A stretch of DNA of 64,000 bases from an uncultured Bacteroidales bacterium (GTDB taxonomy: Bacteria > Bacteroidota > Bacteroidia > Bacteroidales > UBA932), in the NCBI GenBank assembly GCA_944326225.1, contig CALVDI010000006.1, forward strand, positions 1,981 to 65,980, given 5' to 3'. Made by a program: the position numbers and the translations under genes. Below the pieces are notes generated by a model that saw nothing but the letters and a program-made list of their open reading frames with translations, searched no databases and had not been told where the DNA came from. Positions 31,353-60,358 of the stretch are shown here, piece after piece (within the stretch, counting starts at the first letter, position 1; each line of letters opens with the position of its first letter).

Positions 31353-31353
31353 T

Positions 31354-31905: not shown

Positions 31906-31929
31906 ATCCAGTCTATTCATACTCTTCAA

Positions 31930-32424: not shown

Positions 32425-32441
32425 CATTAGATTAAAGTTGT

Positions 32442-32804
32442 ATGGTAGGACGGGAAAGATTTAAAGTGTTGTATTTGAAAGAGGCGGTAGAGTTTTTAGA
32501 GTCATTGGATGGAAAGGCCAGGGAAAAAATAGTCTTTAACATCAGTAAGGCGATGCATGTGGTGGATAAAGATTTGTTTAAGAAGATGGGAGACTCTGAC
32601 ATATGGGAATTCCGCACTTTATATAGGGGGATTGCGTATCGCCTTTTAGCCTTTTGGGATACAGAGTCGGAGACACTTGTGGTTGTGGCGCACGGGTTTG
32701 TGAAAAAGACTCAGAAAACGCCTAAAAGAGAGATAGAAAGGGCGGACGGGATAAGAAAACGATATTTTGATTTTAAAAGAAAATACAATGGAGAAAATCG
32801 GTAA
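32442..32804 (+). CDS. RelE/HigB-type toxin (phage Gp49-like family)
   Basis: 120 aa. ...IWEFRTLYRGIAYRLLAFWD....LVVVAHGFVKKTQKTP pattern typical of Gp49/HigB-like toxins. Confidence 0.7.
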   Translation: MVGRERFKVLYLKEAVEFLESLDGKAREKIVFNISKAMHVVDKDLFKKMGDSDIWEFRTLYRGIAYRLLAFWDTESETLVVVAHGFVKKTQKTPKREIERADGIRKRYFDFKRKYNGENR

Positions 32805-33114
32805 TATGGAGCTCTTTACTCATGAAGAGGTGTTGGATCGGGTTGTTGGAGAAAAAGGTACTTCTGCACGTGCGGAGTTTGATCAGAGGATGGATGAATT
32901 TCTTATAGGGGACGCTATCAGGCATACGCGGGAAGCCAACCATCTGACACAGGAACAACTTGGAGAGCTTATGGGAGTGAAGCGGGCTCAAATTTCAAAG
33001 ATTGAAAGTGGAAAAAGCATTACTTATTCCACTATTGTAAGAGCTTTTAAAGCCATGGGCGTAAAGACCGCCAGTCTGGATATGGGAGCGATGGGCAAGG
33101 TCGCGTTGTGGTGA
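32788..33114 (+). CDS. XRE-family HTH antitoxin (HigA-like)
   Basis: LTQEQLGELMGVKRAQISKIESGK HTH. Overlaps the toxin 3' end; toxin-first order as in higBA. Confidence 0.7.
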   Translation: MEKIGNMELFTHEEVLDRVVGEKGTSARAEFDQRMDEFLIGDAIRHTREANHLTQEQLGELMGVKRAQISKIESGKSITYSTIVRAFKAMGVKTASLDMGAMGKVALW

Positions 33115-44989: not shown

Positions 44990-44999
44990 ATTGACGCAA

Positions 45000-45395
45000 A
45001 TGGAAGACTGGTTAGGTATTGTATTGGGAATCCTGTTTATTCTGGGACCGGCTCTGCTGGAGAAAGGCAGCAGGAAGAAAAAGCGCGGACAGAGACATGA
45101 ACGGCAGTTGCCGCAGCAGGATGAGGTGTATGGGCCGGAGCCGGTTCTGCGGCCTGAGACGACTGAGTCTCAGCTGCCCGAGGTAAGGCCGGTATATGTT
45201 CCGGTTCCGTCCGAAGAACCGATGACGTTCCCTGAGGAGACGGTCTCCAGTGAACCTGTTGCCCGGGAATCTGCTGCACCGGACAAGGCTGTTCCCGTTC
45301 CGGACCGCGGGAGCAATCCCCCTGCCCGCAGGAAACGCCGCTTCAATGGACGGGACATGATAATTTATTCCGAGATACTGAAGCCGAAATTTTAA
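45000..45395 (+). CDS. Small membrane-anchored Pro/Glu-rich protein
   Basis: N-terminal TM (WLGIVLGILFILGPALL), low-complexity middle, basic C-terminus. Confidence 0.5.
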   Translation: MEDWLGIVLGILFILGPALLEKGSRKKKRGQRHERQLPQQDEVYGPEPVLRPETTESQLPEVRPVYVPVPSEEPMTFPEETVSSEPVARESAAPDKAVPVPDRGSNPPARRKRRFNGRDMIIYSEILKPKF

Positions 45396-48025
45396 AATTT
45401 TACCTGCACACCCAGCAGTATGTTAAGAGGGCGTATTTTGTATTCGAAATGTGTTATCTGCATAGGCTGTAGGCTGGTGTATGAGAAGTTACGTTGATCA
45501 GTGAGGTTCTTCGCGTGAATGAAAACCTGAATATCAGGATTGATATAGTACCACGCTGATGCATTTATGAAGTAAGCCGAGAAGTGTGTATCGGTGCCGT
45601 ATTTGTTTAGATAGAAGTCACATGACAGATCAATGTCAAGCTTGTCAAAAGGAAGCAAGGTAAATGTTATGTTGTGGTCTGTGGAATGATTTGCAATTAT
45701 ACTTTCTGATTTACCGATGACGTAAGTCGAATATTCGTAACTGCCGGAGTAGTTTATACCGAGCCATCGTGTAATGTTTCCTTTGTATTGGATACCGACA
45801 ACATAATAGGATCCAGTGTATTCGTTTTGGATGTTGTTCTGAGATATGGTTGAGTTCATTCGTGAGAAGTCGAAAGTTCCTGTCAGTTTACTGGCGGATT
45901 TAAAGAAAGTTTTTGATATCTCGGTGCTCGAACTGCCTATTACGTAGTTGCTGATGTTGTTGGACAGAACATTTACGATATAGTCGTCATTCAAAAAGTA
46001 CCGTGTCTGTTCAAAGTCTTTTCCGGCAGAGTATCTCCCTTTGCCTTTTATGAACCATCCTTTCAGCGGATCGCGGTACTCCAGCTCCATATTTATGCTG
46101 TATCCGGGAAGTTGTCCGAGATCAGTGCGCCCTTGAGTGAGATATTTGTAATCCTGCATAATCAGACCTGAGAATATCTGCTGTTCGTCTATGGCTGACA
46201 TGGTGTAGTCTGTCATGGCCTTGACTGTGAATCTCGGACCGAAGTCGTATTTCATTTCTATTGATGGATTGACAGCAAAGTTATGTTTGTCCGTATCATC
46301 TGATGTGAGTTTGTAATTGATGTACTGATACCATGCATCAATGTAAATATATGCACTAAATCTTCTTGCAGTGAAGTTGAGTGTCAGATATTCCTTAGGC
46401 TGCAGGTACTGAAGCACGGCATCGTTGCTGTAAGTCTCGGGCGGCAGGCCCAGATTCAGGCCGTTAAACCAGGTGATAAGATGACGGCGCATATACGGCA
46501 GTTCGGTTTGAGAACTGAGCCTGAACCATTTGACAGGATTATAGGTGTGGCTGTATTTGATGTTGTTGTAGAAATACTCACCCTGTATATCCTGGACAGC
46601 ATCTTCATTATCGCTGTCAGAGAGGATATTCATGTTTTCAGTCTGCTTTGTGTATTGTGTGAACATCTGCATGCCGAATCCTGATTTCTCAAGCCGTCTG
46701 AAAAACCGAAGATAATTAAGAACGTTGAGACCATTAATATCTGAGTCTTCTTTTTTTGATGCGGTTCCGGTAAGATTATTATTTGCATTGCTGCCGGAAA
46801 ATTCAATCTGAAAATTATTCCTTAAATAGAGTTTTTTTGTATTAAGTTCAGCTGTGATATTACCGTATCCCAGGTATGCTGCGGAGCATGTGTTGTTGTA
46901 TTCGGTAAATTCTGCAGATTTTCCATCATCAATCATAAATTTCTGGACAACTGAATTATATGAAGAGAGAACCTCGTGCTCGAATAGTCCGGATATACCT
47001 ATTTTAAGGTTTTTACGTTTCCCGATCGAAAATTTATTGTTTGTGGTTGCCGAGTAGCTGGTGTTGAAACGTGTTCTTTCATCCTGTATGGGGGCTGACA
47101 AGTGATATATGCCGGTGAAGAGTCGCGGAGTATAGCGTTCACTGAGTTCCACGTTACTCCAGTCAGTGGAGAGCCCTGTGCCGTCAAGCGTGGAGGTAAT
47201 GTCGTTCCCTGCGGCATCCGTCTTCAGTGTGTTGATGGTCTGGAATTTCCTGCTTATGTTCATAAGCATCCCGCCGGCGGAATATGGAACCCATGGCTCT
47301 TCTGTACTACCCCCTGCTTCAGCCTGCAGAGTCCCAATCCATTTTGCTCTGGAATCGTTTTTCAATATAATATCAATTGCTGCTTGGTCGCTTTCAACAA
47401 TGCCTTCCAATGCCCTGACCGGCTGATGATTCTCGTATATTTTCACTTCTTTTATATCCTTAGGACTGATATTTTTAGTGGCAATGTTGTAGCGGCCTTC
47501 CAGCAGATCGTTGCCTTCAATGTATAATTTATTGATAGGCCGTCCGTACGCTTTTACGAATCCTTCTCTGTCCACACTTATTCCCGGTAGTTTTGTCAGT
47601 ACGTCACCAAGTACACGATCATCATTTGAAACAAGTGTCGGAATATAGTATGTGATGGTGTCTCCTGTTTTTTTCACTTGTTCAGCCTTGATAATAGTTT
47701 CGTTTAGTGTGATAATGTCTTCCGTCAGTTGTATTTCCATATATTCTTCAAACGGAGGCAGAAGCCTATAGGGCTTATATCCCATTATCCTGGCCTCCAG
47801 CGTGGTGCTGTCAGTTTCTGCCGACTGTATGCGCAATGTGAATATTCCGTCGGAATCGGTGAAAGAGTATGAGACAGGTATGCCTTTAAAATTTTTCAGA
47901 ATGACAGTAACTCCTTCAATTGGTTTCATTGTTTTACTGTCCGTTATTCTGCCTTTGATTTCGTCAGCAGATGCACTGATTGATAATGCGAGGAGTATAA
48001 TAATGGAGAATAGTCTTATTTTCAT
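45392..48025 (-). CDS. CarboxypepD_reg-domain outer-membrane beta-barrel (TonB-dependent-receptor-like)
   Basis: Signal peptide. IKGRITDSKTMKPIEGVTVILKN...DSDGIFTL, plug-like region, long beta-barrel ending ...GVQVKF. Confidence 0.75.
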   Translation of the reverse strand: MKIRLFSIIILLALSISASADEIKGRITDSKTMKPIEGVTVILKNFKGIPVSYSFTDSDGIFTLRIQSAETDSTTLEARIMGYKPYRLLPPFEEYMEIQLTEDIITLNETIIKAEQVKKTGDTITYYIPTLVSNDDRVLGDVLTKLPGISVDREGFVKAYGRPINKLYIEGNDLLEGRYNIATKNISPKDIKEVKIYENHQPVRALEGIVESDQAAIDIILKNDSRAKWIGTLQAEAGGSTEEPWVPYSAGGMLMNISRKFQTINTLKTDAAGNDITSTLDGTGLSTDWSNVELSERYTPRLFTGIYHLSAPIQDERTRFNTSYSATTNNKFSIGKRKNLKIGISGLFEHEVLSSYNSVVQKFMIDDGKSAEFTEYNNTCSAAYLGYGNITAELNTKKLYLRNNFQIEFSGSNANNNLTGTASKKEDSDINGLNVLNYLRFFRRLEKSGFGMQMFTQYTKQTENMNILSDSDNEDAVQDIQGEYFYNNIKYSHTYNPVKWFRLSSQTELPYMRRHLITWFNGLNLGLPPETYSNDAVLQYLQPKEYLTLNFTARRFSAYIYIDAWYQYINYKLTSDDTDKHNFAVNPSIEMKYDFGPRFTVKAMTDYTMSAIDEQQIFSGLIMQDYKYLTQGRTDLGQLPGYSINMELEYRDPLKGWFIKGKGRYSAGKDFEQTRYFLNDDYIVNVLSNNISNYVIGSSSTEISKTFFKSASKLTGTFDFSRMNSTISQNNIQNEYTGSYYVVGIQYKGNITRWLGINYSGSYEYSTYVIGKSESIIANHSTDHNITFTLLPFDKLDIDLSCDFYLNKYGTDTHFSAYFINASAWYYINPDIQVFIHAKNLTDQRNFSYTSLQPMQITHFEYKIRPLNILLGVQVKF

Positions 48026-48039
48026 TATGTTTCCGCGGA

Positions 48040-48726
48040 TTATTTGTAAGAAATAATGAACTCTTCAGGAAGAAAGCCCCAGCTGCGGCTGTCATAGGAC
48101 TGTGTCATGTTGTCTCCGCATACAAAATAGTAATCATGAGTGAATACGTGGATACTGTCCATGCGGGGTATACTGTCGTTTTCGTACTCAAAATCTATGA
48201 TTTTATTGTAAATATGCCATAAATGGTGGTCTCTCTTATACAGAGTGTCGCCTTTTTTCGGTATGTAAATCCAAGACATATTGAGTAGATCATCGTCACT
48301 GGAATAGCTGTTGTTAGTTATGACAGAATAGAATAATGGTGACGGATTGAGTGGCGCAGGTATCTGCCTGCAATGATATGTGGAGATGCCTGTCCGTCTG
48401 TTTAAGACAACACCATTGTCTATGCGTAGAGAATCTCCAGGGCCGGCGATACATCTTTTTATAAGCAGGTGATTGGTGTCGGGGGAAATAGTGGGCTTGT
48501 AGTCTTTGTACGGAAAATAGAAGATGACAACTTTGTCTGTAAGATTTTTTCTCCTTCCTTGCTTCAATCTGTAGGCCAGGATTTTATCTCCATCTTCAAG
48601 ATAAGGAGACATAGAACTGTCATGGATTCTGTATATGTCAAACTTGCATGATCCGATTATCATCAAGATTATAACGGCAGCTGCAGATACTGCAGTTGCA
48701 ACTCTATTTAATGTTCCACGATGCAT
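48040..48726 (-). CDS. S26 family signal peptidase I (accessory copy)
   Basis: N-terminal TM. SSMSP (Ser box), IKRCIAGPGD (Lys box), GDNMTQSYDSRSWG (box E): all catalytic motifs intact. Confidence 0.8.
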   Translation of the reverse strand: MHRGTLNRVATAVSAAAVIILMIIGSCKFDIYRIHDSSMSPYLEDGDKILAYRLKQGRRKNLTDKVVIFYFPYKDYKPTISPDTNHLLIKRCIAGPGDSLRIDNGVVLNRRTGISTYHCRQIPAPLNPSPLFYSVITNNSYSSDDDLLNMSWIYIPKKGDTLYKRDHHLWHIYNKIIDFEYENDSIPRMDSIHVFTHDYYFVCGDNMTQSYDSRSWGFLPEEFIISYK

Positions 48727-49198
48727 AATTGATTATTCTACCGTTGTAGACAAGGTATATTCCGTCTTGGGAATAAGTCTCCTCCGGTATGAATATAGTT
48801 GTTATATTTTCAGTCAGTTCATTTATATCTTCTTTTTCCATATAATATCTGAAAACTTCTTCTCCGCCTTTTACAAGAAGTAACTTGAACTCTTTGTCGT
48901 TGTGCATATCATAGTAGGTGCGTATAAAGTCAAATGCATCGGCTATGCAGAAAGAGCAGTCACCTGTTGCGACATATGCGATATATGGTTCTTCTGATTC
49001 TATATTGGCGGCAGCCGTTCTCCAAAGAGTGTCTGTACGTACCATTTTCTGTATGGGGATACATTCTATGTCGTAGATAAAGGAAACGGCATTGATTGTT
49101 TTATGTTTTTTAGCTGTTTGGATATCAGTGCAGCCGTTAATGGCGGACAGACATCCGTGGCTGAAAAGCATGATGAGAATAATCAGTACTTTATACAT
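48704..49198 (-). CDS. Secreted thioredoxin-fold-like protein with a CxxC motif
   Basis: Signal peptide; ...YIAYVATGDCSFCIADA... places CxxC after a beta-strand, as in TlpA/DsbE-type proteins. Confidence 0.5.
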   Translation of the reverse strand: MYKVLIILIMLFSHGCLSAINGCTDIQTAKKHKTINAVSFIYDIECIPIQKMVRTDTLWRTAAANIESEEPYIAYVATGDCSFCIADAFDFIRTYYDMHNDKEFKLLLVKGGEEVFRYYMEKEDINELTENITTIFIPEETYSQDGIYLVYNGRIINYASWNIK

Positions 49199-49199
49199 A

Positions 49200-50099
49200 T
49201 TATAAATCCGTCTCAATAAAGTCGTTGCCTAAAGGAGTGAAAGAGGCATAGCTCTCTGGAGTGTTCTCAACAAAAACAGCAGAGTTGACAAGGTAGACCT
49301 CACTGGCGACCCAGTATCTTGTCTCGTGAAGAATCTTTGCCTCCATATATTTCTTCCGGCTAGTTTTGAGATACAGGTAATCCGGCAGATAGATGTCACC
49401 TTCGGTAAAATAAATATTGTCCAGTGTAAACCTGTAGTATCCGTCTTTATCGGATACAGATATGATTAGCCCCGGAAGACCGTGGAATTTCCAGGGCCCG
49501 GCCTGGGAGGGAATCTCTGTCGTGAACCATGCGGTATAGTCTCTGCCCCTGAAAGTGCATGTAGCCATTACGGCATTGTATCCGGCTATTATTTTAGTAC
49601 TGTCTTGGATAGACCATTCGATATTCATGGATTTTTCTTTATACAGAAAGTCCTGAGTGATTATCCTGCCTGTACAAGTCCATTCGTCATTTTGAAGATT
49701 GTGTATGAAGGTCTCATAGAAAGTCAGCAGACCCACTTTTGAGCCGGCTATTTTCTTATTACCAAGATAACTGGATACGATACCATGACGAACCAGTGAG
49801 TCTGTCTCAAAGAACAGCCGGTTGTAGTACTTGGTGTAGGTTCTGCCGATTTCCAATGTGGCTTGCCCTTCTTCTGTTGCTCCTGTCAAAGTGTCTTTGA
49901 CAAAAGCATAGGAATATCCTGCTCTCATGATAATCCTGTCAAGAGAATCGGCCGGATAGATTTTACTGTCCATAAACAGGACGCTCTCGTATTGGCCGGG
50001 AATGTCACTGTCCATGAAAATCATTGTACTCTGAGCCTTGACTTGCAATATGCAGCAACAGATAACGATGATTAAGACAAAGAATGGCTTGTAGCTCAT
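49200..50099 (-). CDS. GLPGLI family protein
   Basis: Signal peptide and the eponymous motif WKFHGLPGLIISV. Confidence 0.8.
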   Translation of the reverse strand: MSYKPFFVLIIVICCCILQVKAQSTMIFMDSDIPGQYESVLFMDSKIYPADSLDRIIMRAGYSYAFVKDTLTGATEEGQATLEIGRTYTKYYNRLFFETDSLVRHGIVSSYLGNKKIAGSKVGLLTFYETFIHNLQNDEWTCTGRIITQDFLYKEKSMNIEWSIQDSTKIIAGYNAVMATCTFRGRDYTAWFTTEIPSQAGPWKFHGLPGLIISVSDKDGYYRFTLDNIYFTEGDIYLPDYLYLKTSRKKYMEAKILHETRYWVASEVYLVNSAVFVENTPESYASFTPLGNDFIETDL

Positions 50100-51154
50100 T
50101 ATATGGCGAATCTTGTTAATCGCGTAATGCCGTTATTGTCGGTTACTGCGGCATAGATATATCCGTCAGAGTAGGTCATATAGTAATAAATAACCCCGTT
50201 TATTCTATATGCTCCCTTATAGTTGCCATCCCAATCAAAATTGATGAGGTAAGTGTAGAGACTGTCGCTGTCATCACTCATCCCAAGGTATGCCGCATAT
50301 ACATCAGACCCATCGCTGCATGCGCATAAATATGTGTTGCAGAAACCTCCTGACTGCATAGGAATATTGTTTTCGTCAATATTCTTAGGAAATGTAAAGA
50401 CAGGCTGTACATTGTCCGGTCCCGTAATCTTTCTTATAATATTCAGGGAATAATCGTACACTTCAAGCAAGTCGTCAAATCTGTCGAAATAGAGTATCCT
50501 GTCTTTTTCCTTGTTGGAAATCAAGATGCCGGCAGAAATATTCAGTGTCAAGTATTTTCCGTCTTCCCAACCGGGAGTGAAGCCAGGACCGGTAACAAGA
50601 AATTTATCTCCGGCTTCTTGTTTGCTTACTCTTTGGTCATCCGTCCAGTACGGGCTTAAATAGAGGAGTCTGTCCTTGTAGGGCATTATCTGGTTTGTCC
50701 AGAAATCTATCCCGATAACGTCAGGACTGTATCCGCTGTCACTGATTGCACGCCTGAGGTCAACAATAGTGATGCAGTCCTTTATCACGTCGTGCAATAT
50801 AAGTGTATCACCATGAATATAGGGTTGTGCTGAAAGGAGTTGTCCTTGTCCTCTGCCGAACTCTACCGCTGTGTAGATAGGCTCTGCGTTGTTGAATGTG
50901 TATATTTTCAGAAGTTTGTCGCCAGGAGTTTCAGAAGATACGTTTATACAGATTATGCAGCTGTCATTGTATGTCAGCATAAACGGTGCGTCAAGAGTGT
51001 CATACTTAAAGCCGGTGCGTACAGGCTCGGAGGCCAATTCCTTAGCGGAAAGTTTGATTTCCTGTGGAATGGCTGTCGTATCGATGTCTTTTGCAAAAGA
51101 GCATCGGCACAATACCGCAAGGACGCATACTGCGGTAATAAAGTACCTGTTCAT
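50099..51154 (-). CDS. Secreted beta-propeller protein (BF3164 / 6-bladed TolB-like type)
   Basis: Signal peptide. Repeated hydrophobic-strand/Asp-Gly pattern resembling Bacteroidales 6-bladed propeller lipoproteins (recall only). Stop overlaps the next start (TAATG). Confidence 0.55.
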   Translation of the reverse strand: MNRYFITAVCVLAVLCRCSFAKDIDTTAIPQEIKLSAKELASEPVRTGFKYDTLDAPFMLTYNDSCIICINVSSETPGDKLLKIYTFNNAEPIYTAVEFGRGQGQLLSAQPYIHGDTLILHDVIKDCITIVDLRRAISDSGYSPDVIGIDFWTNQIMPYKDRLLYLSPYWTDDQRVSKQEAGDKFLVTGPGFTPGWEDGKYLTLNISAGILISNKEKDRILYFDRFDDLLEVYDYSLNIIRKITGPDNVQPVFTFPKNIDENNIPMQSGGFCNTYLCACSDGSDVYAAYLGMSDDSDSLYTYLINFDWDGNYKGAYRINGVIYYYMTYSDGYIYAAVTDNNGITRLTRFAI

Positions 51155-51186
51155 AAGATTGTTATGTTTGAAATTTCTTATTCGGT

Positions 51187-51462
51187 TCAGTTTTCAGTAT
51201 TACCGCCAAGACCTGGTGTGCCGCCGTTCTCATTTTTCGGTTCAGCCTTACCGTAGCATTTGAATGTTGAGCCACTGGTTGTAACCCCTTTCATGCAGGT
51301 CAGGACTTTCCCTTTGCAGACATAGTCAGTACCGTCCATTGTAAATGAACAGATCTCAGCCTGAACGTTTCGTATGTTGTTAATCTTGCTGATTGTTGTC
51401 AATACTGCGCCGGCAGTAATTGCAAATGCGATGATGATTGCAGTGGCACTGTTTTTTTTCAT
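51187..51462 (-). CDS. Signal-anchored 4-Cys peptide precursor (NVEALA-like leader)
   Basis: MKKNSATAIIIAFAITAGAVLTTISKINNIRNVQA then EICSF...VCKG...TCMKG...KCYG... and a Gly/Asn-rich tail. First gene of the operon. Confidence 0.6.
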   Translation of the reverse strand: MKKNSATAIIIAFAITAGAVLTTISKINNIRNVQAEICSFTMDGTDYVCKGKVLTCMKGVTTSGSTFKCYGKAEPKNENGGTPGLGGNTEN

Positions 51463-51564
51463 TGTGATTGGTTTTAAAAAGTTAAACATATCGTAAAGAT
51501 ATACATAAAAAAACTAAAAAGCAAGTATTGGCAGTAAAAGATTGTTTGATTTGGAAAATTTATT

Positions 51565-51572
51565 TACCTTTG
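51565..51572 (+). promoter_or_regulatory. -7 box (TACCTTTG) for greA
   Basis: Exact TAnnTTTG 71 nt upstream of the greA ATG, far longer than the 4-39 nt at the other plain -7 boxes (only the 84-nt P190 leader is comparable). Confidence 0.5.
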
Positions 51573-51580
51573 CAAAAGAA

Positions 51581-51611
51581 AGAGTCCTGCTCAGGTGCGG
51601 GATTCTTTTTT
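51581..51611 (+). terminator. Intrinsic-terminator-like hairpin in the greA leader (attenuator)
   Basis: 10-bp stem (AGAGTCCTGC / GCGGGATTCT, with two G-U pairs), 6-nt loop, then TTTTTATATTTTAT. Confidence 0.55.
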
Positions 51612-51643
51612 ATATTTTATAAACTCATAAGCAAGATTGTATC

Positions 51644-52114
51644 ATGTCCGAGATTCATTATGTAACATCAGAAGGTCTTGATAAACTCAAGGCCGAACTG
51701 GCAGAGGCTATAAGCCAGAGACCTGTAATATCCAGACAGATTGCCGAGGCAAGGGATAAGGGAGACCTCTCCGAGAATGCAGAGTACGACGCCGCCAAGG
51801 AGGCCCAGGGACTGTTGGAGCTCAAGATATCCAAGCTGGAGAATCTGGTGGCCAATGCCCGCGTAATCGACGAGTCCAAGATCAATACCGACCATGTGCA
51901 GATGCTTACGAAGGTGACCCTCAAGAACCTGCTCAACAACACCACGGTCCAGTACACGCTGGTGGGAGAGAGCGAGGCCAATTTCCGTGAGGGGAAGCTG
52001 GCGGCCGGTACTCCGATAGGCAAAGCCCTTATAGGCAGGCGGAAAGGTGATGTCGTGGAGGTGAAGGTGCCTTCAGGAGTCCTCAAGTTTGAAATTCTCG
52101 ATATCTCACTCTAA
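51644..52114 (+). CDS. greA: Transcription elongation factor GreA
   Basis: 156 aa. ...AEARDKGDLSENAEYDAAKE... coiled-coil tip with the acidic residues. Confidence 0.95.
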   Translation: MSEIHYVTSEGLDKLKAELAEAISQRPVISRQIAEARDKGDLSENAEYDAAKEAQGLLELKISKLENLVANARVIDESKINTDHVQMLTKVTLKNLLNNTTVQYTLVGESEANFREGKLAAGTPIGKALIGRRKGDVVEVKVPSGVLKFEILDISL

Positions 52115-53701: not shown

Positions 53702-54427
53702 TCTGTCCGGATGCAGGACGGCATCCAGTTTCCTGGACGGACTGGCTGCGATAAATTCTTTAAGGTAGAACGGTTCGAAGTAGGCTGCATCTTCGAACCG
53801 TTTTTCCGTATATGCCCTGCGGGCCGGTTCCGCCATATATGCGGCATCGGGATGGCTTGCTGTAAATGTGCACCTGTCCAGGTACTCAGGATTGATGACC
53901 TGCCTGTATTTCCCGGCTCCGTCTCCGGTGAATATCAGGTGTCCGTATCCGGCTATCTCTCCGGCGAATGTATCCGGCTCAAGGATGACTGCTTTTGTGT
54001 CGGATATCCTGCGTCCCGATGAGTCGAACAGGGCCGTGTACACCTCCATCCTTCTGGCATCAATCATGGGAATAATCAGGGTATCAGCGGATATGTTCCC
54101 GGTACTCAAGGCGCCGCAGGCTATTGCTTCCAGGGTTTCTACCGCGATAAGCGGCAGGCCTGCTCCGAAGCAAATGCCTTTTGCGGTCGATACGCCTACC
54201 CGGAGTCCAGTGTAGGAACCCGGTCCGGAGCTGACGGCTACGGCCGACAGATCTTTGGCGGAAAGACCGGCCTTTTTCAGGACTTCGTCAATCATCGGAG
54301 CGAGTCCTGATGCCTGACTCTTGGGCTCGGATGTGTATCTGGCGGAAATAATCCCTTTTCCGTCTGTTATGGCTGCGGAACATACGTCCGTGGCCGTCTC
54401 AATAAGCAGTATCTTATCGTTCATCAT
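53696..54427 (-). CDS. tsaB: tRNA t6A37 biosynthesis protein TsaB
   Basis: ILLIETATDVCSAAI..., GPGSYTGLRVG motifs. Confidence 0.9.
   Translation of the reverse strand: MMNDKILLIETATDVCSAAITDGKGIISARYTSEPKSQASGLAPMIDEVLKKAGLSAKDLSAVAVSSGPGSYTGLRVGVSTAKGICFGAGLPLIAVETLEAIACGALSTGNISADTLIIPMIDARRMEVYTALFDSSGRRISDTKAVILEPDTFAGEIAGYGHLIFTGDGAGKYRQVINPEYLDRCTFTASHPDAAYMAEPARRAYTEKRFEDAAYFEPFYLKEFIAASPSRKLDAVLHPDRS
53769..53805 (+). terminator. Rho-independent terminator for the plus-strand gene, embedded in the convergent tsaB CDS
   Basis: AACGGTTCGAAG-taggctgcat-CTTCGAACCGTT followed by TTT; about 70 nt past the stop at 53701. Confidence 0.55.
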
Positions 54428-55637
54428 CGTTGTGTTTTTCTATATCGGCATTGACTTTCATCCCGTCCTCCAGTACTCTGTTCACGGTGCTGTACGGTCC
54501 GGTGACGATCCAGGTGGAGTCCGCGTCTTCCAGGCCTCCTGTTATCTGGATGTTCTCTATGCTCTGGATGCCCGTGCTCACCTTGACGGAGCTGACGGTG
54601 GCCGTGGACGGGTCGTATGTGAATATGCATTCTTCGGAAGTAACGGCCTGCAGGGGTACGGTCAGGGCATTGTCCTGTCTGTCAGTCTCTATCTCTACCG
54701 ATGCGGACATGCCCGGCCTGAACGGGATGGGGTCTTTTTCCAGCAGGTCTGCATAGGATGCCGGCAGCAGCCGGATCCTGACCTCGAAGTTGGTTACGTC
54801 CGTAAGGGCGGAGGTGGCTGCAGTAAGGTTTTTCGCCGAATTGGCAATCTGAGTGACCACTCCCTTGAAACGTCTGCCCGGGTATGCGTCCACGTCGATA
54901 TCGGCCGTGTCGCCTTTTGTTATGCGTATGATGTCATTCTCGTTGACATCCACGAGCACTTCCATCATGTTGAAGTCGGCTATCCGCAGCATCTCGGTTC
55001 CGGCCATCTGGGAGGTGCCCACGACCCTTTCTCCTTTCTCTACGCTAAGGCTGGATATGATGCCGTCGATAGGGGAGTATATGACGGTCTTGGTCAGGTT
55101 CTCCTCGGCCTCGCTCAATGAAGCGGTGGCGCTTTCAATGTTGTACTCGGCGGCCTTCAGCTGTTCCGCGGCCATTCCGTACTCAGCAGTGCTGGCCTCG
55201 AACTCCTGCAGGGAGATGGCCCGCTTCTCATAGAGGTCCCGGTTGCGGTTGTAATTCTGCTCGGCCTGGTCAAAAGCGGCTTTCTGCTGACGGTACTGGG
55301 CCTTCGTGGAGTTGAGGGATGCCTCCGCCCTGTCTCTCAAGGATATGTAGACATCCTGCCGGATCTTGATGATCAGGTCTCCTTTCCGGACTCTGTCGCC
55401 CTCCTCCACGTTGAGCTCGATGATCTCTCCTGAGACATCGGGACTTATCTTTACTTCCGTCACAGGACGTATCTTTCCGTTTGCAGGTATCTTTTCTATG
55501 ATGGTCTCTCTCGTCGGACGGTTGATGACGACAGGCTCGCCCTTGTCCGTCCTTAGCAGAGCAAACAGGACGGCGGCCGTCACAGCTGCGGCCATGGCGA
55601 TGAGAGTGTATCTTATGCCTTTTCTTTTCTTTCCCAT
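54414..55637 (-). CDS. Membrane fusion protein (HlyD/MacA-type periplasmic adaptor)
   Basis: N-terminal TM, lipoyl-like and coiled-coil hairpin, beta-barrel domain; 407 aa. Confidence 0.8.
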   Translation of the reverse strand: MGKKRKGIRYTLIAMAAAVTAAVLFALLRTDKGEPVVINRPTRETIIEKIPANGKIRPVTEVKISPDVSGEIIELNVEEGDRVRKGDLIIKIRQDVYISLRDRAEASLNSTKAQYRQQKAAFDQAEQNYNRNRDLYEKRAISLQEFEASTAEYGMAAEQLKAAEYNIESATASLSEAEENLTKTVIYSPIDGIISSLSVEKGERVVGTSQMAGTEMLRIADFNMMEVLVDVNENDIIRITKGDTADIDVDAYPGRRFKGVVTQIANSAKNLTAATSALTDVTNFEVRIRLLPASYADLLEKDPIPFRPGMSASVEIETDRQDNALTVPLQAVTSEECIFTYDPSTATVSSVKVSTGIQSIENIQITGGLEDADSTWIVTGPYSTVNRVLEDGMKVNADIEKHNDDER

Positions 55638-55639
55638 AA

Positions 55640-56974
55640 TTATAGTGACATAGGTATCCCTTTATAAAAGTCTATGATTTTCAATTGGAATACGAATTGG
55701 TACCTGGCCTGCAGGTATTCTGACCTGGCTTTGAACAGGTTGGCCCTGGCTACGGTATAGTCGGTGCCGTTCAGGACACCGGAGTTGAACTTCTCCTCCA
55801 CGTATCTGAAAGACTCCTGCATGGATGCGACATTGGCCTCGGCTGCTTCCATCTGACGGTAATAGGTCTCGGCTTCAGTAACGGCGGTCTGTATCTCCTT
55901 GTAGAGAGTCTGCTCCTTGGCCCTGAGCTCCAGTTCCAGGCTCTCTCTGGCCAGCCTGGCGTTTCTGACGTTGGTCTTGACGCTCCAGTTGTTGAAGATC
56001 GGGATACTCAGGCCGACGGTTATGGACGGATTGATGTTGTCCCGGAACTGCTCGAAGAACGGATATACGCTTCCGTCCGGGGCAAAGGTTGAGGAACTGT
56101 AGAAGGTCCCGTAGCTGGCGGACAGGGATATCTTCGGATAGAGCTGGCCTTTGGCTGACTTCAGATCCAGCTCTCCTTTGTCCAGGGCCAGTCTGGCACT
56201 CTGTATCACGGGCATGGACAGAGCTCCGGCATAGATCTCGTCGATATTGTCGGCAGTGTATCCCTGTATGATGTAATCTATATCCGGCACAGCTATGCGG
56301 AAGTCCGGACTGTACTGCAGATCCAGCAGCTGCTGAAGGGCCAGGGTGTTGGTCCTGACCTGGCTCTCGGCCGTGACAACCTGCACTCTCTCGGAGGCCA
56401 GCTGGGACTCTATGTCCAGCAGGGAAGTGTAGGGCTGACTGCCGGCCTCTACCAGCAGCCGGGTCCTGTCTCTCTGCTCCTGGAGCGAATGGAAACTCTC
56501 TTCCGCAGCGGCAAGTATTTCCCGGGCCAGAAGTATCTGCAGGTAACTCTTGGCGATGGAGACGGATATCTCGTCCTTGAGCCTCTCGACTTCCTGTATG
56601 GAGATCTCCAGACTCTTCTGACTGCTTTTAAGACCGTACAGCTTTGACAGACCGTCCAGCAGGTATATTGAGGCATTTGCCGACGCGCTGGTGCTCTGGG
56701 ACAGCTTGTTGTGTATGATTTCCAGGTTCTGGAGGTCTACTGAGCGGCCCCAGTTGAGGTTGTGCCCGAAAGAGACATTGAGACTGGGAGCAAAGTCCAG
56801 CTTGTCCTGAAGCAGCTGGGCCTCGCTTCGGGAGACCTCGATGTTCTGCTGCTTGATGGACAGGTTGTTGCTCCAGGCATATTCAATACACCTTTCCAGG
56901 GTCCATGTCTCCTGGGCAAGAGCGGTCTGGCTCAGAACCAGAGCTGAAAGTATTAAGCATATCCTGTAGTTCAT
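55640..56974 (-). CDS. TolC family outer-membrane channel
   Basis: Signal peptide MNYRICLILSALVLSQTALAQ and two tandem OEP repeats. Start set 27 nt downstream of a TATTTTTG box. Confidence 0.85.
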   Translation of the reverse strand: MNYRICLILSALVLSQTALAQETWTLERCIEYAWSNNLSIKQQNIEVSRSEAQLLQDKLDFAPSLNVSFGHNLNWGRSVDLQNLEIIHNKLSQSTSASANASIYLLDGLSKLYGLKSSQKSLEISIQEVERLKDEISVSIAKSYLQILLAREILAAAEESFHSLQEQRDRTRLLVEAGSQPYTSLLDIESQLASERVQVVTAESQVRTNTLALQQLLDLQYSPDFRIAVPDIDYIIQGYTADNIDEIYAGALSMPVIQSARLALDKGELDLKSAKGQLYPKISLSASYGTFYSSSTFAPDGSVYPFFEQFRDNINPSITVGLSIPIFNNWSVKTNVRNARLARESLELELRAKEQTLYKEIQTAVTEAETYYRQMEAAEANVASMQESFRYVEEKFNSGVLNGTDYTVARANLFKARSEYLQARYQFVFQLKIIDFYKGIPMSL

Positions 56975-57001
56975 GCCTTTCCTGTCTATCCTATCGTCGT
57001 G

Positions 57002-57009
57002 CAAAAATA
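57002..57009 (-). promoter_or_regulatory. -7 box (TATTTTTG) for tolC-MFP(-tsaB), formed by the T-tract of the preceding terminator
   Basis: Exact TAnnTTTG on the minus strand, 27 nt upstream of the ATG at 56974. Confidence 0.45.
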
Positions 57010-57057
57010 ATAAAAATAAAGAGGCTGTGGCCGAAATTCGCGCCCGGTCACAGCCTC
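57003..57057 (-). terminator. Rho-independent terminator after the second GG-leader peptide gene
   Basis: GAGGCTGTGACC...GGCCACAGCCTC stem (about 12 bp) followed by TTTATTTTTATTATTTTT on the minus strand. Confidence 0.7.
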
Positions 57058-57062
57058 AATTA

Positions 57063-57233
57063 TCAGAATGCCGAAGCGGTCTGAGGTTTCTTACCGTTTC
57101 TGAGCAAGTCATAAAGAGCCCTGAGAGCCGCGCCTACAAGCCGGCCGAGCATACGTGCCACATTACCCTCTGAGCTGCCTCCTCCTATTATCGAGCAGGA
57201 TTCACTTCTTCTAAGTACGATGAACTGTTCCAT
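57063..57233 (-). CDS. Double-glycine-leader peptide B (56 aa, absent from the ORF track)
   Basis: Codon-by-codon hand translation: MEQFIVLRRSESCSIIGG / GSSEGNVARMLGRLVGAALRALYDLLRNGKKPQTASAF. Leader has L(-12) E(-8) I(-4) GG. 8 nt after peptide A. Confidence 0.65.
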   Translation of the reverse strand: MEQFIVLRRSESCSIIGGGSSEGNVARMLGRLVGAALRALYDLLRNGKKPQTASAF

Positions 57234-57241
57234 AGCAGCGA

Positions 57242-57430
57242 TCAGTTACCGGTTGAACATGCTGCCTCCTTTCCGGTCCACCCCTCGATGAATCCCAACA
57301 GGAACTGATCGATGTTGTCGACGAAGAATTTTACGATTTTGCCCCATAGGCCGGCACCCCCGCGGACGGTGGCGCAAAGGTCAGAATTAACACATTCAAA
57401 CCCTTCATACCTTTGAATAATTCTTTCCAT
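57242..57430 (-). CDS. Double-glycine-leader peptide A (62 aa)
   Basis: MERIIQRYEGFECVNSDLCATVRGG / AGLWGKIVKFFVDNIDQFLLGFIEGWTGKEAACSTGN. Lies 45 nt downstream of the C39-ABC gene. Confidence 0.65.
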   Translation of the reverse strand: MERIIQRYEGFECVNSDLCATVRGGAGLWGKIVKFFVDNIDQFLLGFIEGWTGKEAACSTGN

Positions 57431-57475
57431 GATGCTAGATTTTAATGTTGTGCCGCAGATAAAAGGCGCTGCGGC

Positions 57476-59572
57476 TTACGCCTGTGAACGCGCGTTCTTA
57501 TGTGATAGATCTATTATGTTGTCGGCAATGTCCAGTGCCTGCTCCTCGTGGGATATGAGCACTGTCGTGATATTGTGCTCTTTAAGAAGACAGATAGTGT
57601 CAGTCAGCCTCTTGCGGCTCTCCTGGTCCAGAAATGTGGCCGCCTCGTCCAGAATCAGCACTTTGGGCTGGCGGTACAGGGCTCTGGCCAGGGCTATCTT
57701 CTGTCTTTCTCCCCCGGACAGTCTGCATCCATGCTCTCCGGTATGGGCCGTTATACCGCCCGGCAGGCTCTCTATCGTGCGGGCCAGACCGGCCATGGCG
57801 CATACTGCAGTGACGGAACGCATGTCGTAGTCCCTGTCTCCCATTACTATGTTGTCCAGGATGCTTCCGTCGGATATTTCCGGCTTCTGCGGGACTATCG
57901 AGATGTATTTCCGCCAGGTGTCCAGCGGGATGGTCTGTATGTCCACTCCGCCGGCGGTGATGCTTCCGCTATGGGGCGCATAGCCCCGCATCAGCAGTGC
58001 CGCGACGGTGCTCTTGCCGCTGCCGTTGGCTCCGAGTATGAGGTTGGTCTTTCCGGGCAGGATCCTGAACGAGAGTCCGTCCAGCAGTTGCTCTCTTCCG
58101 GGGAATGAGAAGCAGATGTCTCTGGCCTCGATGATGTCGTCCTGTGCCGGCTGGAACCTTACTGTCCCTGTGGGCTCTTCCCCCTCCAGGTCCAGGATGT
58201 CGAATATCCTCTCCGCTGATATCCGTGCTTCGGCAATCTCACGGCTGCTCTCGATGAGCAGGACTACGGGAGAGCTGAAGACGGTGGTCATGGATATGAA
58301 GGATACCAGTTCTCCTACGGTCAGCTCGGAATTCAGTACGAAAAACGCTCCCGCAAGCAGGGTCGTAAGATATACTGCCCGGCTGACAGTGTCGGAGACG
58401 GAGGCTACGGCCGATGCCAGCACTCCTCCACCGTACAGTGCGGATGCCGTCCTGAAGTACTGTGTCTCTATCTTTCTTACGGCCTCTCTCTCGGAGTTGA
58501 AATATTTTACGTCCCTGACTGCGGAGAGCTGCTCGATGCTGGTCTGCTCGAACCTGGCGTTCTCCTCTATGATCCGCCGGTTGACTTTTCTGTTGAGCCT
58601 GTCCGAGACTATGTACAGCAGGACGAACAGCGGTATGAAGCTCAGGACGATCAGTGTGAGTTTCCAGTAGAAGGTCATGAGCACGGCGGTGGCTATGGTC
58701 AGGGTGATGACGCTTATTGTCATCAGCAGCAGTCTCTCGGTGATGAACGACCGTATGCGGTAGGCGTCTGATACTCTGGAGTTGAGCTCTCCGCTGCTCA
58801 TGGAGTTGAAGAACGACAGCGGCAGCGAGAACACTTTGCGGAAATATTCCGTGATGAGGCGGCAGTCTATCTTGATGCTTGTACGTACCAGCAGGACAGA
58901 CCTTACGTAGGATATGTACCAGCACAGCAGGGCAAGGCATATCATGACGGCTCCTGCGGTCAGCAGTCCGTTGCGGTTACCTGCCGGTATGACCGAGTCG
59001 ATGATCCTCTGCAGGAATACGGATATGCTCAGAGTGGCGGCTATGTAGGCGGCCGAGCCGGCCAGTACCAGTGCCAGCTCCTTTCTGTAGAACGTGAGAA
59101 TGTCCTTGAACCGGCCGAGGATGTCGGTCCTCATGTCTCCCTTTTTGAACATCGGCGAAGGGGTGACGGCGATGATGTAGCCGCTCCATTCTTCTTCCAG
59201 TTCTTTCAGACTGGTCCTGTGCATCCTTCCGTCCTCTGGGTCCATGATCCGGGCATGGTCCTTGTCCATCCCGTAGAGGACCACGAAGTGCAGCCATCCG
59301 CTTTTCTTCTCCAGATGCAGTATGACTGGCCTCTCCACATTACGGAGACTGTCCATGTCCTTGTCCTTCGCCTTCAGTCCGGCCGCTTCAAGTCCCAGCT
59401 TGCCGCAGGCATCGATGACGCCCTGCATGGTGGTGCCGTCCGCGTTTGTCCCGCAGGCCTCCCGTATCCTTATAAGGGGCAGCCTGAGTCCGTAATGGGC
59501 GCATACTGACGCGACGCATGCGGCGGCGCAGTCATTCCGGTCCTGTTGTCTGATTCTGATCTCCTTCTCCAT
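57476..59572 (-). CDS. C39 peptidase-domain ABC transporter (bacteriocin/GG-peptide exporter)
   Basis: QQDRNDCAAACVASV (catalytic Cys), WLHFVVLYG (His), six TM helices, GANGSGKST, LSGGERQKIALARAL, VLILDEA. Confidence 0.9.
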   Translation of the reverse strand: MEKEIRIRQQDRNDCAAACVASVCAHYGLRLPLIRIREACGTNADGTTMQGVIDACGKLGLEAAGLKAKDKDMDSLRNVERPVILHLEKKSGWLHFVVLYGMDKDHARIMDPEDGRMHRTSLKELEEEWSGYIIAVTPSPMFKKGDMRTDILGRFKDILTFYRKELALVLAGSAAYIAATLSISVFLQRIIDSVIPAGNRNGLLTAGAVMICLALLCWYISYVRSVLLVRTSIKIDCRLITEYFRKVFSLPLSFFNSMSSGELNSRVSDAYRIRSFITERLLLMTISVITLTIATAVLMTFYWKLTLIVLSFIPLFVLLYIVSDRLNRKVNRRIIEENARFEQTSIEQLSAVRDVKYFNSEREAVRKIETQYFRTASALYGGGVLASAVASVSDTVSRAVYLTTLLAGAFFVLNSELTVGELVSFISMTTVFSSPVVLLIESSREIAEARISAERIFDILDLEGEEPTGTVRFQPAQDDIIEARDICFSFPGREQLLDGLSFRILPGKTNLILGANGSGKSTVAALLMRGYAPHSGSITAGGVDIQTIPLDTWRKYISIVPQKPEISDGSILDNIVMGDRDYDMRSVTAVCAMAGLARTIESLPGGITAHTGEHGCRLSGGERQKIALARALYRQPKVLILDEAATFLDQESRKRLTDTICLLKEHNITTVLISHEEQALDIADNIIDLSHKNARSQA

Positions 59573-59599
59573 GTCCCGCTCCTCCAGAATGTGTCTTGA

Positions 59600-59749
59600 T
59601 TATATAAAAGGAGTGAACGGCAGTGCGGACAGCAGAAACGCCGCAGCTGCAGCAATCTTGTACCTGATGATTTTCCTGGATGCCATCGGCGGCAGTACGG
59701 ATTCTGCCAGCCGGCCTGTGATCTCCCTCAAACTCTTCTCTTCTTCCAT
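59600..59749 (-). CDS. Small tail-anchored membrane protein (49 aa), first ORF of the exporter transcript
   Basis: MEEEKSLREITGRLAESVLPPMASRKIIRYK then the hydrophobic IAAAAAFLLSALPFTPFI. Near-consensus ATACTTTG box at 59769-59776. Confidence 0.35.
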   Translation of the reverse strand: MEEEKSLREITGRLAESVLPPMASRKIIRYKIAAAAAFLLSALPFTPFI

Positions 59750-59849
59750 ATCATTGAATTTTCTGATGCAAAGTATGGAAAAATATTTCACATTCCGTTA
59801 CCACTTTTGACAAAATCGAAAAAGTTTTTACGGAAGTGGTTGAAAAAGG

Positions 59850-60344
59850 CTAGATTTTGAACAGTTCCTTGATATAGGGGAATACGGAGTCGGTGATGGA
59901 GGTTATGATCTGTACGCCTTTGGAGCCCTCCAGGGCCTCTTTGGGGACGAGAGTGAACCAGGTGTCATTGACGTATTCTATCAATGACAGCAGGACTCCG
60001 ATGAGGAGCACGGTCGTGGCTATGGACAGCACCATGCCCAGAATCCTGTTGACCCATCCCAGTGTGGCGAGCTGAATGATCTTCTCAAGCAGTTTGCCCA
60101 GCAGGTGCATGCACAGGCATGTAGCAATGATTATCAGGATAAATGCTATGATCTTTACTATATTCTCCGAGGCGTTGACCCACTGGCCGAGCCAGTCTGC
60201 GAGCAGTGATGAGAATCTGCCGGCAAGGATGATTCCTATGAAAAGTCCCGCTATGCCGCCTATCTGGCGGATCAGTCCGTCCTTAAGTCCCTTTATTACT
60301 GCCAGTGCGAGCAGTACAAGGATGATAATGTCAATAACAGCCAT
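59850..60344 (-). CDS. cvpA: CvpA family membrane protein
   Basis: MAVIDIIILVLLALAVIKGLKDG... four TM helices. The ORF-track TTG start at 60353 was replaced by the ATG at 60344. Confidence 0.8.
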   Translation of the reverse strand: MAVIDIIILVLLALAVIKGLKDGLIRQIGGIAGLFIGIILAGRFSSLLADWLGQWVNASENIVKIIAFILIIIATCLCMHLLGKLLEKIIQLATLGWVNRILGMVLSIATTVLLIGVLLSLIEYVNDTWFTLVPKEALEGSKGVQIITSITDSVFPYIKELFKI

Positions 60345-60350
60345 AATGGG

Positions 60351-60358
60351 CAAAATTA
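60351..60358 (-). promoter_or_regulatory. -7 box (TAATTTTG) 6 nt upstream of the cvpA ATG
   Basis: Exact TAnnTTTG on the minus strand. Confidence 0.45.

Follow-up and report, generated by a model that had tools for sequence, protein, structure and literature searches.

A tightly packed set of six minus-strand open reading frames (ORFs), located at positions 45392-51489, was found in a 64,000-nucleotide stretch of DNA from an uncultured Bacteroidales bacterium of the UBA932 lineage (assembly GCA_944326225.1, contig CALVDI010000006.1, positions 1,981 to 65,980). The whole stretch is referred to here as the window, and positions are counted from its first letter. In the order peptide, propeller, GLPGLI, CxxC, S26 and barrel, the genes encode a four-cysteine peptide precursor, a probable beta-propeller lipoprotein, a GLPGLI family protein, a CxxC lipoprotein, a signal peptidase paralogue and an outer-membrane protein, and together they form a genomic island whose possible role in the handling of a secreted disulfide peptide is the subject of this study. 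Its features are listed below, with a slash marking cleavage sites.

45401-51544, no strand: low-GC genomic island of about 6.1 kb, present or absent between a 134-aa gene and greA
45387-45400, no strand: palindrome AAATTTTAAAATTT, 14 nt, at the left junction; contains both convergent stop codons
51187-51462, minus: precursor gene of the 4-Cys peptide, 91 aa; MKK start, hydrophobic anchor, K/R-containing spacer, VQA/E
51190-51357, minus: predicted mature peptide, 56 aa (EICSF...NTEN), after VQA/E cleavage
51452-51459, minus: polymorphic homopolymer (A8) within codons 2-4 of the peptide ORF
50099-51154, minus: 351-aa lipoprotein, probable 6-bladed beta-propeller (TolB_like/DUF5128 superfamily); sub-cutoff PF15869
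49200-50099, minus: GLPGLI family protein, 299 aa; type I signal peptide VKA/Q
48704-49216, minus: predicted thioredoxin-fold CxxC lipoprotein, 170 aa from a TTG start; CSFC at 48947-48958
48040-48726, minus: compact S26 signal peptidase I paralogue, 228 aa; intact Ser38/Lys90 dyad
45392-48025, minus: outer-membrane protein, 877 aa, ending in ...VKF; CarboxypepD_reg N-terminal domain, plug-like region, beta-barrel

ORF calling over the window confirmed the dense packing described by a first-pass annotation made from the sequence alone. From the peptide gene to the barrel gene, the junctions are a 32-nt gap, a 1-nt overlap (TAATG at 50099), a short overlap, a 23-nt overlap (48704-48726) and a 14-nt gap. 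Alternative starts were noted at an ATG at 49198 for the CxxC protein, which would give 164 aa, and at an upstream in-frame ATG at 51489 for the peptide, whose ORF (51187-51489) is then 100 aa long, against 91 aa from the MKK start.

The same annotation had placed the genes in a low-GC block between richer flanks, and the GC profile agreed, with values of 0.37-0.46 over about 45250-51750 and 0.52-0.59 on both sides. An exact look-up of the GreA protein retrieved GreA-identical contigs of one species that come in two states. The occupied site carries the six-gene block between the 134-aa gene and greA (L016, L020-22), and the empty site has the 134-aa gene 108 bp from greA (L015, L017-19). In blastn alignments, identity broke at window positions 45400 and 51545, with flanks that were 99-100% identical and a right island edge that was fuzzy over about 20 nt. 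The block is a 6.1-kb island, because strains with identical GreA either carry it or have an empty site, and it is horizontally acquired and strain-variable. The proposed composition boundaries were thus real, as both the identity breaks and the empty-site contigs indicate. The exact S26 protein was found on contigs shorter than 10 kb in all 118 collection blocks that hold it, an effect that strain-variable segments have on metagenome assemblies. Modules in relatives likewise had a GC content below that of adjacent sequence in every one measured. Among the members of the 90%-identity cluster of GreA that were read, the only named ones belonged to Candidatus Coprenecus (Rikenellaceae, chicken gut).

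At the left end, the island abuts the gene of a Pro/Glu-rich protein of 134 aa (44991-45395), which has no family match and whose stop codon lies inside the junction palindrome. Comparison with L015 showed that this palindrome is already in the empty site, and it may have served as microhomology for insertion. Beyond the right end, the shared flank upstream of greA holds a stem-loop of 15 bp with a T run after it (51576-51611); at the empty site this hairpin comes after the 134-aa gene and is terminator-like, which places the insertion point of the island between the stop codon of that gene and the hairpin. The length of a T run at 51613 differed in two contigs. No target-site duplication or terminal repeats were detected at the island ends, and no integrase, transposase, tRNA or Rfam match was found for the island, so that the absence of an integrase, transposase and flanking repeats noted in the first reading was upheld by dedicated searches. 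Megablast gave no match to the island in plasmid and phage collections. A mobile-element origin is therefore unsupported, with no integrase, tRNA, terminal repeat or plasmid/phage match, and so is a role in anti-phage defence, since the PADLOC defence-system library gave no match. A scan for sigma-70 promoters and terminators, which is ill-suited to Bacteroidota promoters, performed at chance level.

The signal peptidase is catalytically intact, as first read. It passed both curated cutoffs, with 75.1 bits against PF10502 (cutoff 22.9, 8e-21) and 75.4 bits against TIGR02227 (cutoff 47, 4e-21), and alignment with a housekeeping LepB showed that S38-M39, K90-R91, D205, S210 and D212-S213-R214 (the Ser-Lys dyad and the GDN and S-x-DSR boxes) are invariant. 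It has neither the insert nor the C-terminal tail of the housekeeping enzyme. TIGR02754 and TIGR02771 matched it far below their cutoffs, and the closest relative found, at 37% identity, lies inside the same module type. Two further S26 homologues, both of the housekeeping type, were rejected as module members: the neighbourhood of P0007 is that of lepA-lepB, and that of P0013 contains no module genes.

The CxxC protein had no family-library match. An exhaustive phmmer search collected a family of 50 cluster representatives, all unnamed, in which C87 and C90 never vary and the lipobox Cys22 hardly does; a word-indexed protein search with the peptide or the CxxC protein returned near-identical copies only. 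The AlphaFold2 (AF2) model, built with the alignment of this family (predicted local distance difference test, pLDDT, 92), placed CSFC (87-90) after a strand at 78-84 and at the N-terminus of the first helix (88-104). All top Foldseek matches were thioredoxin-fold proteins, mostly TlpA/CcmG/ResA/StoA-type oxidoreductases and also SdbA, with 4grf (TlpA-like), 1kng, 3erw, 1st9 and 5um7 as the top structures, and a profile search gave weak matches to 4fyb and 3hcz. The protein is thus modelled as a thioredoxin-fold lipoprotein, which bears out the initial call through the model confidence, the Foldseek matches and the invariant cysteine pair. P0064, a 1032-aa protein whose N-terminus resembles CarboxypepD_reg on visual inspection, gave six separate matching stretches to the N-terminal part of the CxxC protein; it may represent a fusion, or a repeat protein, with a link to the island system.

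The GLPGLI assignment is solid. The protein scored 150.5 bits against TIGR01200 (cutoff 50, 6e-44) and 40.8 bits against PF09697 (cutoff 25, 3e-10), and it contains the motif HGLPGLI. The function of this domain has been given as unknown (PMC9522356), and no functional study for GLPGLI, NVEALA, DUF5128, PF15869 or BF3164 was found in the searchable literature. The beta-propeller call fared less well. The 351-aa lipoprotein matched PF15869 over 269 residues (21.4 bits, E 1.8e-4), below the cutoff of 29.2, and four of its seven relatives matched the same family (best 2e-7), while one matched DUF5128; six of the seven aligned relatives share the cysteine that ends the signal. A single-sequence structure model was unusable (pLDDT 39), and a profile search of the PDB with five propellers gave no match. 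Taken together, the sequence matches indicate that the lipoprotein is probably a 6-bladed beta-propeller.

For the outer-membrane protein, 28 homologues were aligned, namely the window protein and 27 relatives. The window protein matched CarboxypepD_reg just under the cutoff and had no Plug match at E 0.01; within the alignment, CarbopepD_reg_2 was present in 28/28, Plug in 16/28 (weak) and PF14905 in 0/28. The OMP_b-brl_3 (PF14905) identity first considered for the barrel was rejected, this domain being carried only by the barrel of L109. The family profile matched a SusC N-terminal domain at 2e-10 and, weakly at the C-terminus, the TonB-dependent receptors 5fok (4e-3) and 4epa (0.012). The family consensus also contains LKEVxVKA, which we take to resemble a TonB box. 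By these matches, the barrel resembles a TonB-dependent transporter.

The peptide matched nothing in Pfam or NCBIfam. Its NVEALA label was not borne out, because PF14055 gave no match even at E 10 and the motif reads NVQAEI. Homologous peptides were found in five loci or locus pairs (L011, L111/112, L113/114, L115/116 and L118) with the pattern C-x10-12-C-x6-8-C-x11-18-C and conserved C-x-G motifs, which assigns the peptide, as judged by sequence, to a new 4-Cys family. Cleavage at VQA/E is predicted from the -3/-1 rule of signal peptidase I and from the aligned sites VHA/S, VSA/L and AKA/E in relatives.

The peptide gene is the variable part of the module. In a comparison of 15 island copies that were 99.8-99.9% identical, the homopolymer in codons 2-4 was A8 in seven copies, A9 in seven and A7 in one; A8 is in frame, and A9 and A7 are out of frame. 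This was the sole coding indel in 6.4 kb. The tract is also the only A/T run of at least 8 in the 64-kb window, and four A/T7 runs elsewhere in the island showed no length variation. Both A8 and A9 were found on the haplotype with C at 51490. The truncated 50-aa product (P0004) occurred on 21 contigs and the intact product (P0003) on 6. An assembly artefact is unlikely, because the contig names suggest short-read assemblers and several independent samples, and the A/T7 runs are invariant. The tract has the features of a simple-sequence contingency gene: it is a homopolymer inside an ORF, its length differs among natural copies and the difference changes the frame. The density of single-nucleotide polymorphisms was also highest in the peptide gene (19.8/kb, compared with 2-8/kb in the other island genes), where 4/6 changes were nonsynonymous, three of those four within the mature part. 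Furthermore, two loci of another species differ in this gene, which L118 has and L117 cleanly lacks.

The distribution of the module was examined in a table of loci built from the contexts of S26 and CxxC-family relatives. A search of the genome collection with the S26 pair alignment found nothing, and a search with a further alignment found one locus, L026. Where measured (L011, L026 and the CxxC relatives), protein identities to the window proteins were 24-45%. The gene orders were as follows.

Window: peptide, propeller, GLPGLI, CxxC, S26, barrel
L011: peptide, GLPGLI, CxxC, S26, propeller, barrel (24-37% identity)
L115/116: peptide, GLPGLI, CxxC, S26, barrel, propeller
L118: CxxC, peptide, GLPGLI, propeller, S26, barrel
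L117: order of L118 minus the deleted peptide gene
L026 (Muribaculaceae metagenome-assembled genome): GLPGLI, CxxC, S26, barrel
L107: CxxC, S26, barrel; the contig begins just before CxxC
L111/112: peptide, propeller, GLPGLI, CxxC, barrel; no S26
L113/114: barrel (divergent), then peptide, GLPGLI, CxxC, propeller; no S26
L109/110: propeller, CxxC, 78-aa lipoprotein, PF14905 barrel

All six gene types recur in L011, L115/116 and L118, and five of them (no S26) in L111/112 and L113/114. The gene set is thus co-conserved in divergent loci despite its shuffled order. Chance adjacency of unrelated genes in a low-GC region, which might draw on the fact that four of the six proteins fall under curated cutoffs (peptide and CxxC without match, propeller and barrel sub-threshold), is almost certainly wrong, since at least eight distinct loci, in different hosts and several orders, share the set at 24-45% identity, and the island genes overlap or nearly touch; the comparative data already contradict it. 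The peptide and propeller are not obligatory parts, because L026 and L117 keep GLPGLI, CxxC, S26 and barrel without a peptide gene.

Two of these loci carry further genes. In L117, a second, degenerate module (2061-8576; GLPGLI, propeller, a 37-codon S26 remnant and barrel), followed by a DDE transposase, sits just upstream of the complete one, which is evidence that such modules undergo duplication and decay. In L026, the gene upstream of GLPGLI (7995-8963) encodes a protein of about 270 aa with, by inspection, a signal peptide, one transmembrane helix and a helix-turn-helix-like cytoplasmic tail; it has no Pfam match, is preceded by a further 789-aa barrel and may be a regulator.

The presence of S26 was found to track the type of the peptide precursor. 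In 4/4 S26 loci with a peptide, a spacer of 7-11 residues containing Lys or Arg is followed by an AxA-type site (window, SKINNIRNVQA/E; L011, INRKSTPVHA/S; L115, IIKAEKVSA/L; L118, STQSMITAKA/E). In 2/2 peptide loci without S26, the signal peptide is canonical (SLGIA/S and TSLIA/Q). The main argument that the private S26 may cut the peptide precursor is that this distal site behind a charged spacer tracks the presence of S26.

A parallel architecture emerged from a metagenome scan with the barrel, which yielded 80 base loci (L027-L106) with full-length relatives at 22-29% identity. Local hidden Markov models (HMMs) found GLPGLI, in one to five copies, in 74/80 of them, mostly directly upstream of the barrel. 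The CxxC protein and the propeller were found by the same HMMs in 0/80, the sole S26 was an unlinked one in L055, and 4-Cys-type peptides occurred in 0/80. Clustering of the neighbouring ORFs, with annotation of representatives, revealed a recurrent co-directional operon that encodes a tetratricopeptide repeat (TPR) protein (BT3442-like), a protein of about 130 aa (BT3441-like), a C39-VKOR fusion, GLPGLI, the barrel, a C39-peptidase ATP-binding cassette (C39-ABC) exporter and HlyD. The C39-VKOR fusion was counted in 33 loci, the C39-ABC exporter in 36 and HlyD in 11; a C39 component was present in 46/80 and both C39-ABC and C39-VKOR in 23/80. The TPR protein was found in 28/80, followed in several by the ~130-aa protein (BT3442- and BT3441-like in the representatives tested), and regulators (histidine kinase, TetR or BlaI/BlaR) are encoded in some base loci.

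Small ORFs with a double-glycine (GG) leader lie directly upstream of 38/121 GLPGLI genes in these loci. Their mature parts are about 41 aa long and comprise 30 distinct forms without an NCBIfam match; those inspected were acidic, rich in Trp and carried a single Cys close to each end. Tandem cassettes of a GG-leader 2-Cys peptide followed by GLPGLI occur up to three times per operon (for example L029 5007-8310, L047 6336-9973 and L058 4549-8611). In seven base loci, C39-VKOR sits between GLPGLI and the barrel, which is the slot of CxxC and S26 in the window. Judged from gene content, two non-homologous sets of parts appear to do the same jobs around a common core of GLPGLI and barrel: leader removal by C39 or S26, thiol-disulfide chemistry by VKOR or the thioredoxin-like lipoprotein, and inner-membrane passage by ABC exporter or Sec. 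The parallel architecture, with its non-homologous parts, independently supports a peptide-maturation module.

A TPR or TPR-like protein heads the cluster in L012 (974-4436) and L109 (565-3988), as it does in the 28 GG loci. In L012 and several GG loci it is followed by a protein of about 130 aa (DUF3244 in L012, BT3441-like in one tested), and in L012 and L109 it is preceded by an AAA-ATPase_like/PDDEXK_9 gene. In B. thetaiotaomicron, BT3441 and BT3442 flank a MACPF cluster (PMC2954219). Toxin-type loci may have such genes in common as a regulatory or assembly unit.

With slightly more confidence than doubt, the island is interpreted as a strain-variable acquired operon that makes a small secreted disulfide peptide together with the envelope machinery that handles it. 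As read from its sequence, the 91-aa precursor would enter the inner membrane via Sec through its N-terminal signal anchor. The VQA/E site lies about 10 residues past the hydrophobic core, after Lys and Arg, and the island's own S26, not LepB, would release the 56-aa peptide into the periplasm, where the thioredoxin-fold CxxC lipoprotein may form or shuffle its two disulfides. GLPGLI and the propeller lipoprotein may bind the peptide; the barrel, in the least certain step, would be an exit route, a cognate receptor or a means of self-protection. Slippage of the A8 tract in codons 2-4, observed as a polymorphism, would turn peptide production on and off if it also occurs within strains. The peptide would most likely be a bacteriocin-like factor of interbacterial antagonism. 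Retention of the accessory genes while the peptide is silenced or lost resembles, by analogy, orphan immunity or cheating in bacteriocin systems, and would also fit a shared public good. Of the self-contained module for maturation and handling of a disulfide peptide that had first been proposed, the core was strengthened by co-conservation, whose absence the first reading had named as a refutation, by the parallel architecture, the thioredoxin fold and the intact S26, and the NVEALA, PF14905 and obligatory peptide/propeller elements were lost.

In a wider frame, we think that the island may be the Sec-type variant of a Bacteroidales system in which GLPGLI and the barrel deal with small secreted disulfide peptides. 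A more general proposal, which is possible and held only tentatively, is that GLPGLI proteins and TonB-dependent-transporter-like barrels form an outer-membrane peptide-handling system of Bacteroidota, either as a second secretion step or as a cognate immunity or receptor device, for small disulfide-bonded peptides that would arrive through two interchangeable front ends, one made up of GG leader, C39-ABC exporter and VKOR and the other of Sec signal anchor, private S26 and thioredoxin-like lipoprotein. The window would then represent the rarer Sec-type version, with its peptide under simple-sequence-repeat on/off control.

Several observations weigh against the disulfide-peptide operon. The mature peptide has a net charge of about zero by residue count, and no known bacteriocin motif was matched to it in family searches. 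Thioredoxin-fold proteins of the TlpA/ResA kind usually act as reductants, and the canonical cis-Pro position before the DGxY strand of the CxxC protein is not conserved: many relatives have Pro, the window protein has Gln and the residue varies in others. The correlation between S26 and peptide type comes from six loci, a small sample. L026 and L117 retain S26 and CxxC with no 4-Cys peptide gene within reach, and in L109 the partner of the CxxC protein is another small lipoprotein, so S26 and CxxC may act on another substrate. The A-tract variation was seen in metagenome consensus sequences and not in clonal cultures, and the tract is not conserved in relatives. The barrel is the weakest point: the characterised proteins with a TonB-dependent-transporter fold are, to our knowledge, all importers, and we know of no precedent for export through one. 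Instead of an exit, it could thus provide a route of re-uptake or act as receptor or immunity device.

Uptake of a nutrient or ligand is accordingly the alternative that survives best. Here the barrel would be a TonB-dependent importer, the propeller a surface capture protein, GLPGLI an accessory binder and the peptide a re-imported carrier or structural subunit. The reading is unlikely, and it keeps the weight it has because the characterised proteins of the barrel's fold all import. The SusC-like N-terminal domain, the weak Plug matches in 16/28, the weak C-terminal matches to TonB receptors and LKEVxVKA would all fit, as would the lipoprotein signal of the propeller, the established pairs of TonB-dependent transporter and propeller lipoprotein in Bacteroides and, as public-good cheating, the common peptide-off variants. 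However, uptake leaves the sibling C39-ABC, HlyD, C39-VKOR and GG-peptide genes upstream of GLPGLI unexplained, no metabolic, sigma/anti-sigma, hybrid two-component sensor or SusD-like genes lie alongside, and the propeller is missing from the 80 base loci.

It is improbable that the disulfide peptide is a pheromone for which the barrel and GLPGLI serve as an outer-membrane receptor or entry route. Such peptide signalling could draw on the quorum-sensing pheromones found among C39-ABC-exported GG-leader peptides in other phyla, on the tandem GG-peptide/GLPGLI cassettes, which would suit ligand-receptor specificity, and on the histidine kinase, TetR or BlaI/BlaR genes of some base loci. The island, however, has no sensor kinase, response regulator or transcription factor, and multiple peptide-GLPGLI cassettes, together with peptide loss while the partners are kept, look more like toxin and immunity.

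There is still less reason to regard the island as an envelope or surface-variation cassette in which the small protein stays anchored as a subunit or assembly factor of an outer-membrane complex, S26 and CxxC mature large proteins, and phase variation serves, for example, to evade phage or host immunity. The strain-variable state of the island, the slippery tract of the small gene and the retention of S26 and CxxC without a peptide gene in L026 and L117 would agree with it. Yet inspection of the alignments showed no conserved Cys pairs in the barrel and propeller that would call for a dedicated oxidoreductase, the Cys pair of GLPGLI is also present in loci without the CxxC protein, GLPGLI and the barrel bear ordinary type I signal peptides, and the PADLOC library gave no match.

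The preferred reading, a disulfide-peptide operon, has one of its nearest known counterparts in the bacteroidetocins (class IIf, Coyne et al. 2019, PMC6671954), which share with the island a small secreted 4-Cys peptide, a thiol oxidoreductase, a dedicated leader peptidase and strain variability. The authors of that work stated that Bacteroides lack general disulfide-bond machinery, found that full toxin activity requires the thiol oxidoreductase of the locus and left open the route across the outer membrane (PMC6671954). Bacteroidetocins differ in their 15-aa GG leader, C39-ABC exporter and five-transmembrane protein, where the island has a Sec anchor, S26 and a thioredoxin-like lipoprotein. 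The island adds GLPGLI, propeller and barrel, none of which is in the four-gene bacteroidetocin locus (PMC6671954), and the two peptides, compared by eye and unaligned, show no resemblance. Double-glycine-leader (class II) bacteriocin loci are also distinct, because the island peptide has a signal anchor instead of a GG leader and no C39/ABC gene lies in the island.

The GG-leader operons with GLPGLI, C39-VKOR, barrel, C39-ABC and HlyD are another counterpart. Their GLPGLI and barrel are homologous to those of the island (22-29%, full length), a Cys peptide lies upstream of GLPGLI, and a peptidase and a thiol oxidoreductase are encoded in the operon, in seven loci in the same slot. They differ in having C39, VKOR and ABC parts that are non-homologous to S26, the thioredoxin-like lipoprotein and Sec, and no propeller. 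No description of these operons was found in the searchable literature. A further likeness exists with NVEALA/DUF5128 clusters (L012-L014), where a Cys-rich anchored peptide lies beside a 6-bladed propeller lipoprotein, with an S26 paralogue about 30% identical and a lipoprotein with a CxxC motif. In clusters of the L012 type, however, the peptide belongs to PF14055 (1.6e-5 for that of L012), a GT1-like glycosyltransferase and a stand-alone C39 domain are present, and GLPGLI and barrel are missing.

More distant parallels concern single parts. Private signal peptidases are encoded beside their substrate in the cases of SipW (tapA-sipW-tasA, Bacillus subtilis), TraF and the Ni-SOD protease SodX. 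As in these systems, an S26 paralogue in the island adjoins its presumed dedicated substrate; they belong to another phylum and have other substrates, and the substrate assigned to the island enzyme is a predicted one. BtuB-BtuG and XusA-XusB of Bacteroides pair a TonB-dependent transporter with a surface propeller lipoprotein, and the island likewise co-encodes a transporter-like barrel with a probable beta-propeller lipoprotein. No sequence relationship was detected, however, and neither a peptide nor S26, a thioredoxin-like protein or GLPGLI is part of those pairs. Overall, Bacteroidales are known to have peptide loci that encode a thiol oxidoreductase of their own, and the six-part combination described here appears to be new as far as the searchable literature shows, where a link of GLPGLI and barrel to peptides is also undescribed.

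Other parts of the window contain genes of related interest. At 54414-60353, 3-9 kb from the island, lie genes for an HlyD-type adaptor, an OEP outer-membrane factor, a CvpA/Colicin_V protein and a C39-peptidase ABC exporter (57476-59572). They belong to the core genome, because island-free strains also have them, and the host is thus predicted to possess, in addition, a bacteriocin-type exporter for GG-leader peptides. A second low-GC block (about 0.42-0.43) at 30000-33000 may be another acquired segment; it encodes an extracytoplasmic function (ECF)-type sigma-70 factor (30810-31352) and a Gp49/HigB-like toxin-family protein (32442-32804), along with an ORF of 207 aa that has no annotation.

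GLPGLI proteins, their partner CarboxypepD_reg barrels and DUF5128/TolB_like propellers are widespread in Bacteroidota. Three results on context, namely the neighbours in the island, the neighbours in the GG-type operons and the variable peptide, lead to the testable hypothesis that the role of these families is the envelope handling of secreted disulfide peptides, and they provide a first functional context for several large families of unknown function. If true, this would add to gut Bacteroidales a new class of loci for peptide-based competition or communication and might address the crossing or engagement of the outer membrane that the bacteroidetocin work left open. The island would further be an example of a non-homologous swap of both the leader peptidase and the disulfide catalyst, as well as of simple-sequence phase variation in Bacteroidales, an order in which phase variation is usually described as invertase-driven.

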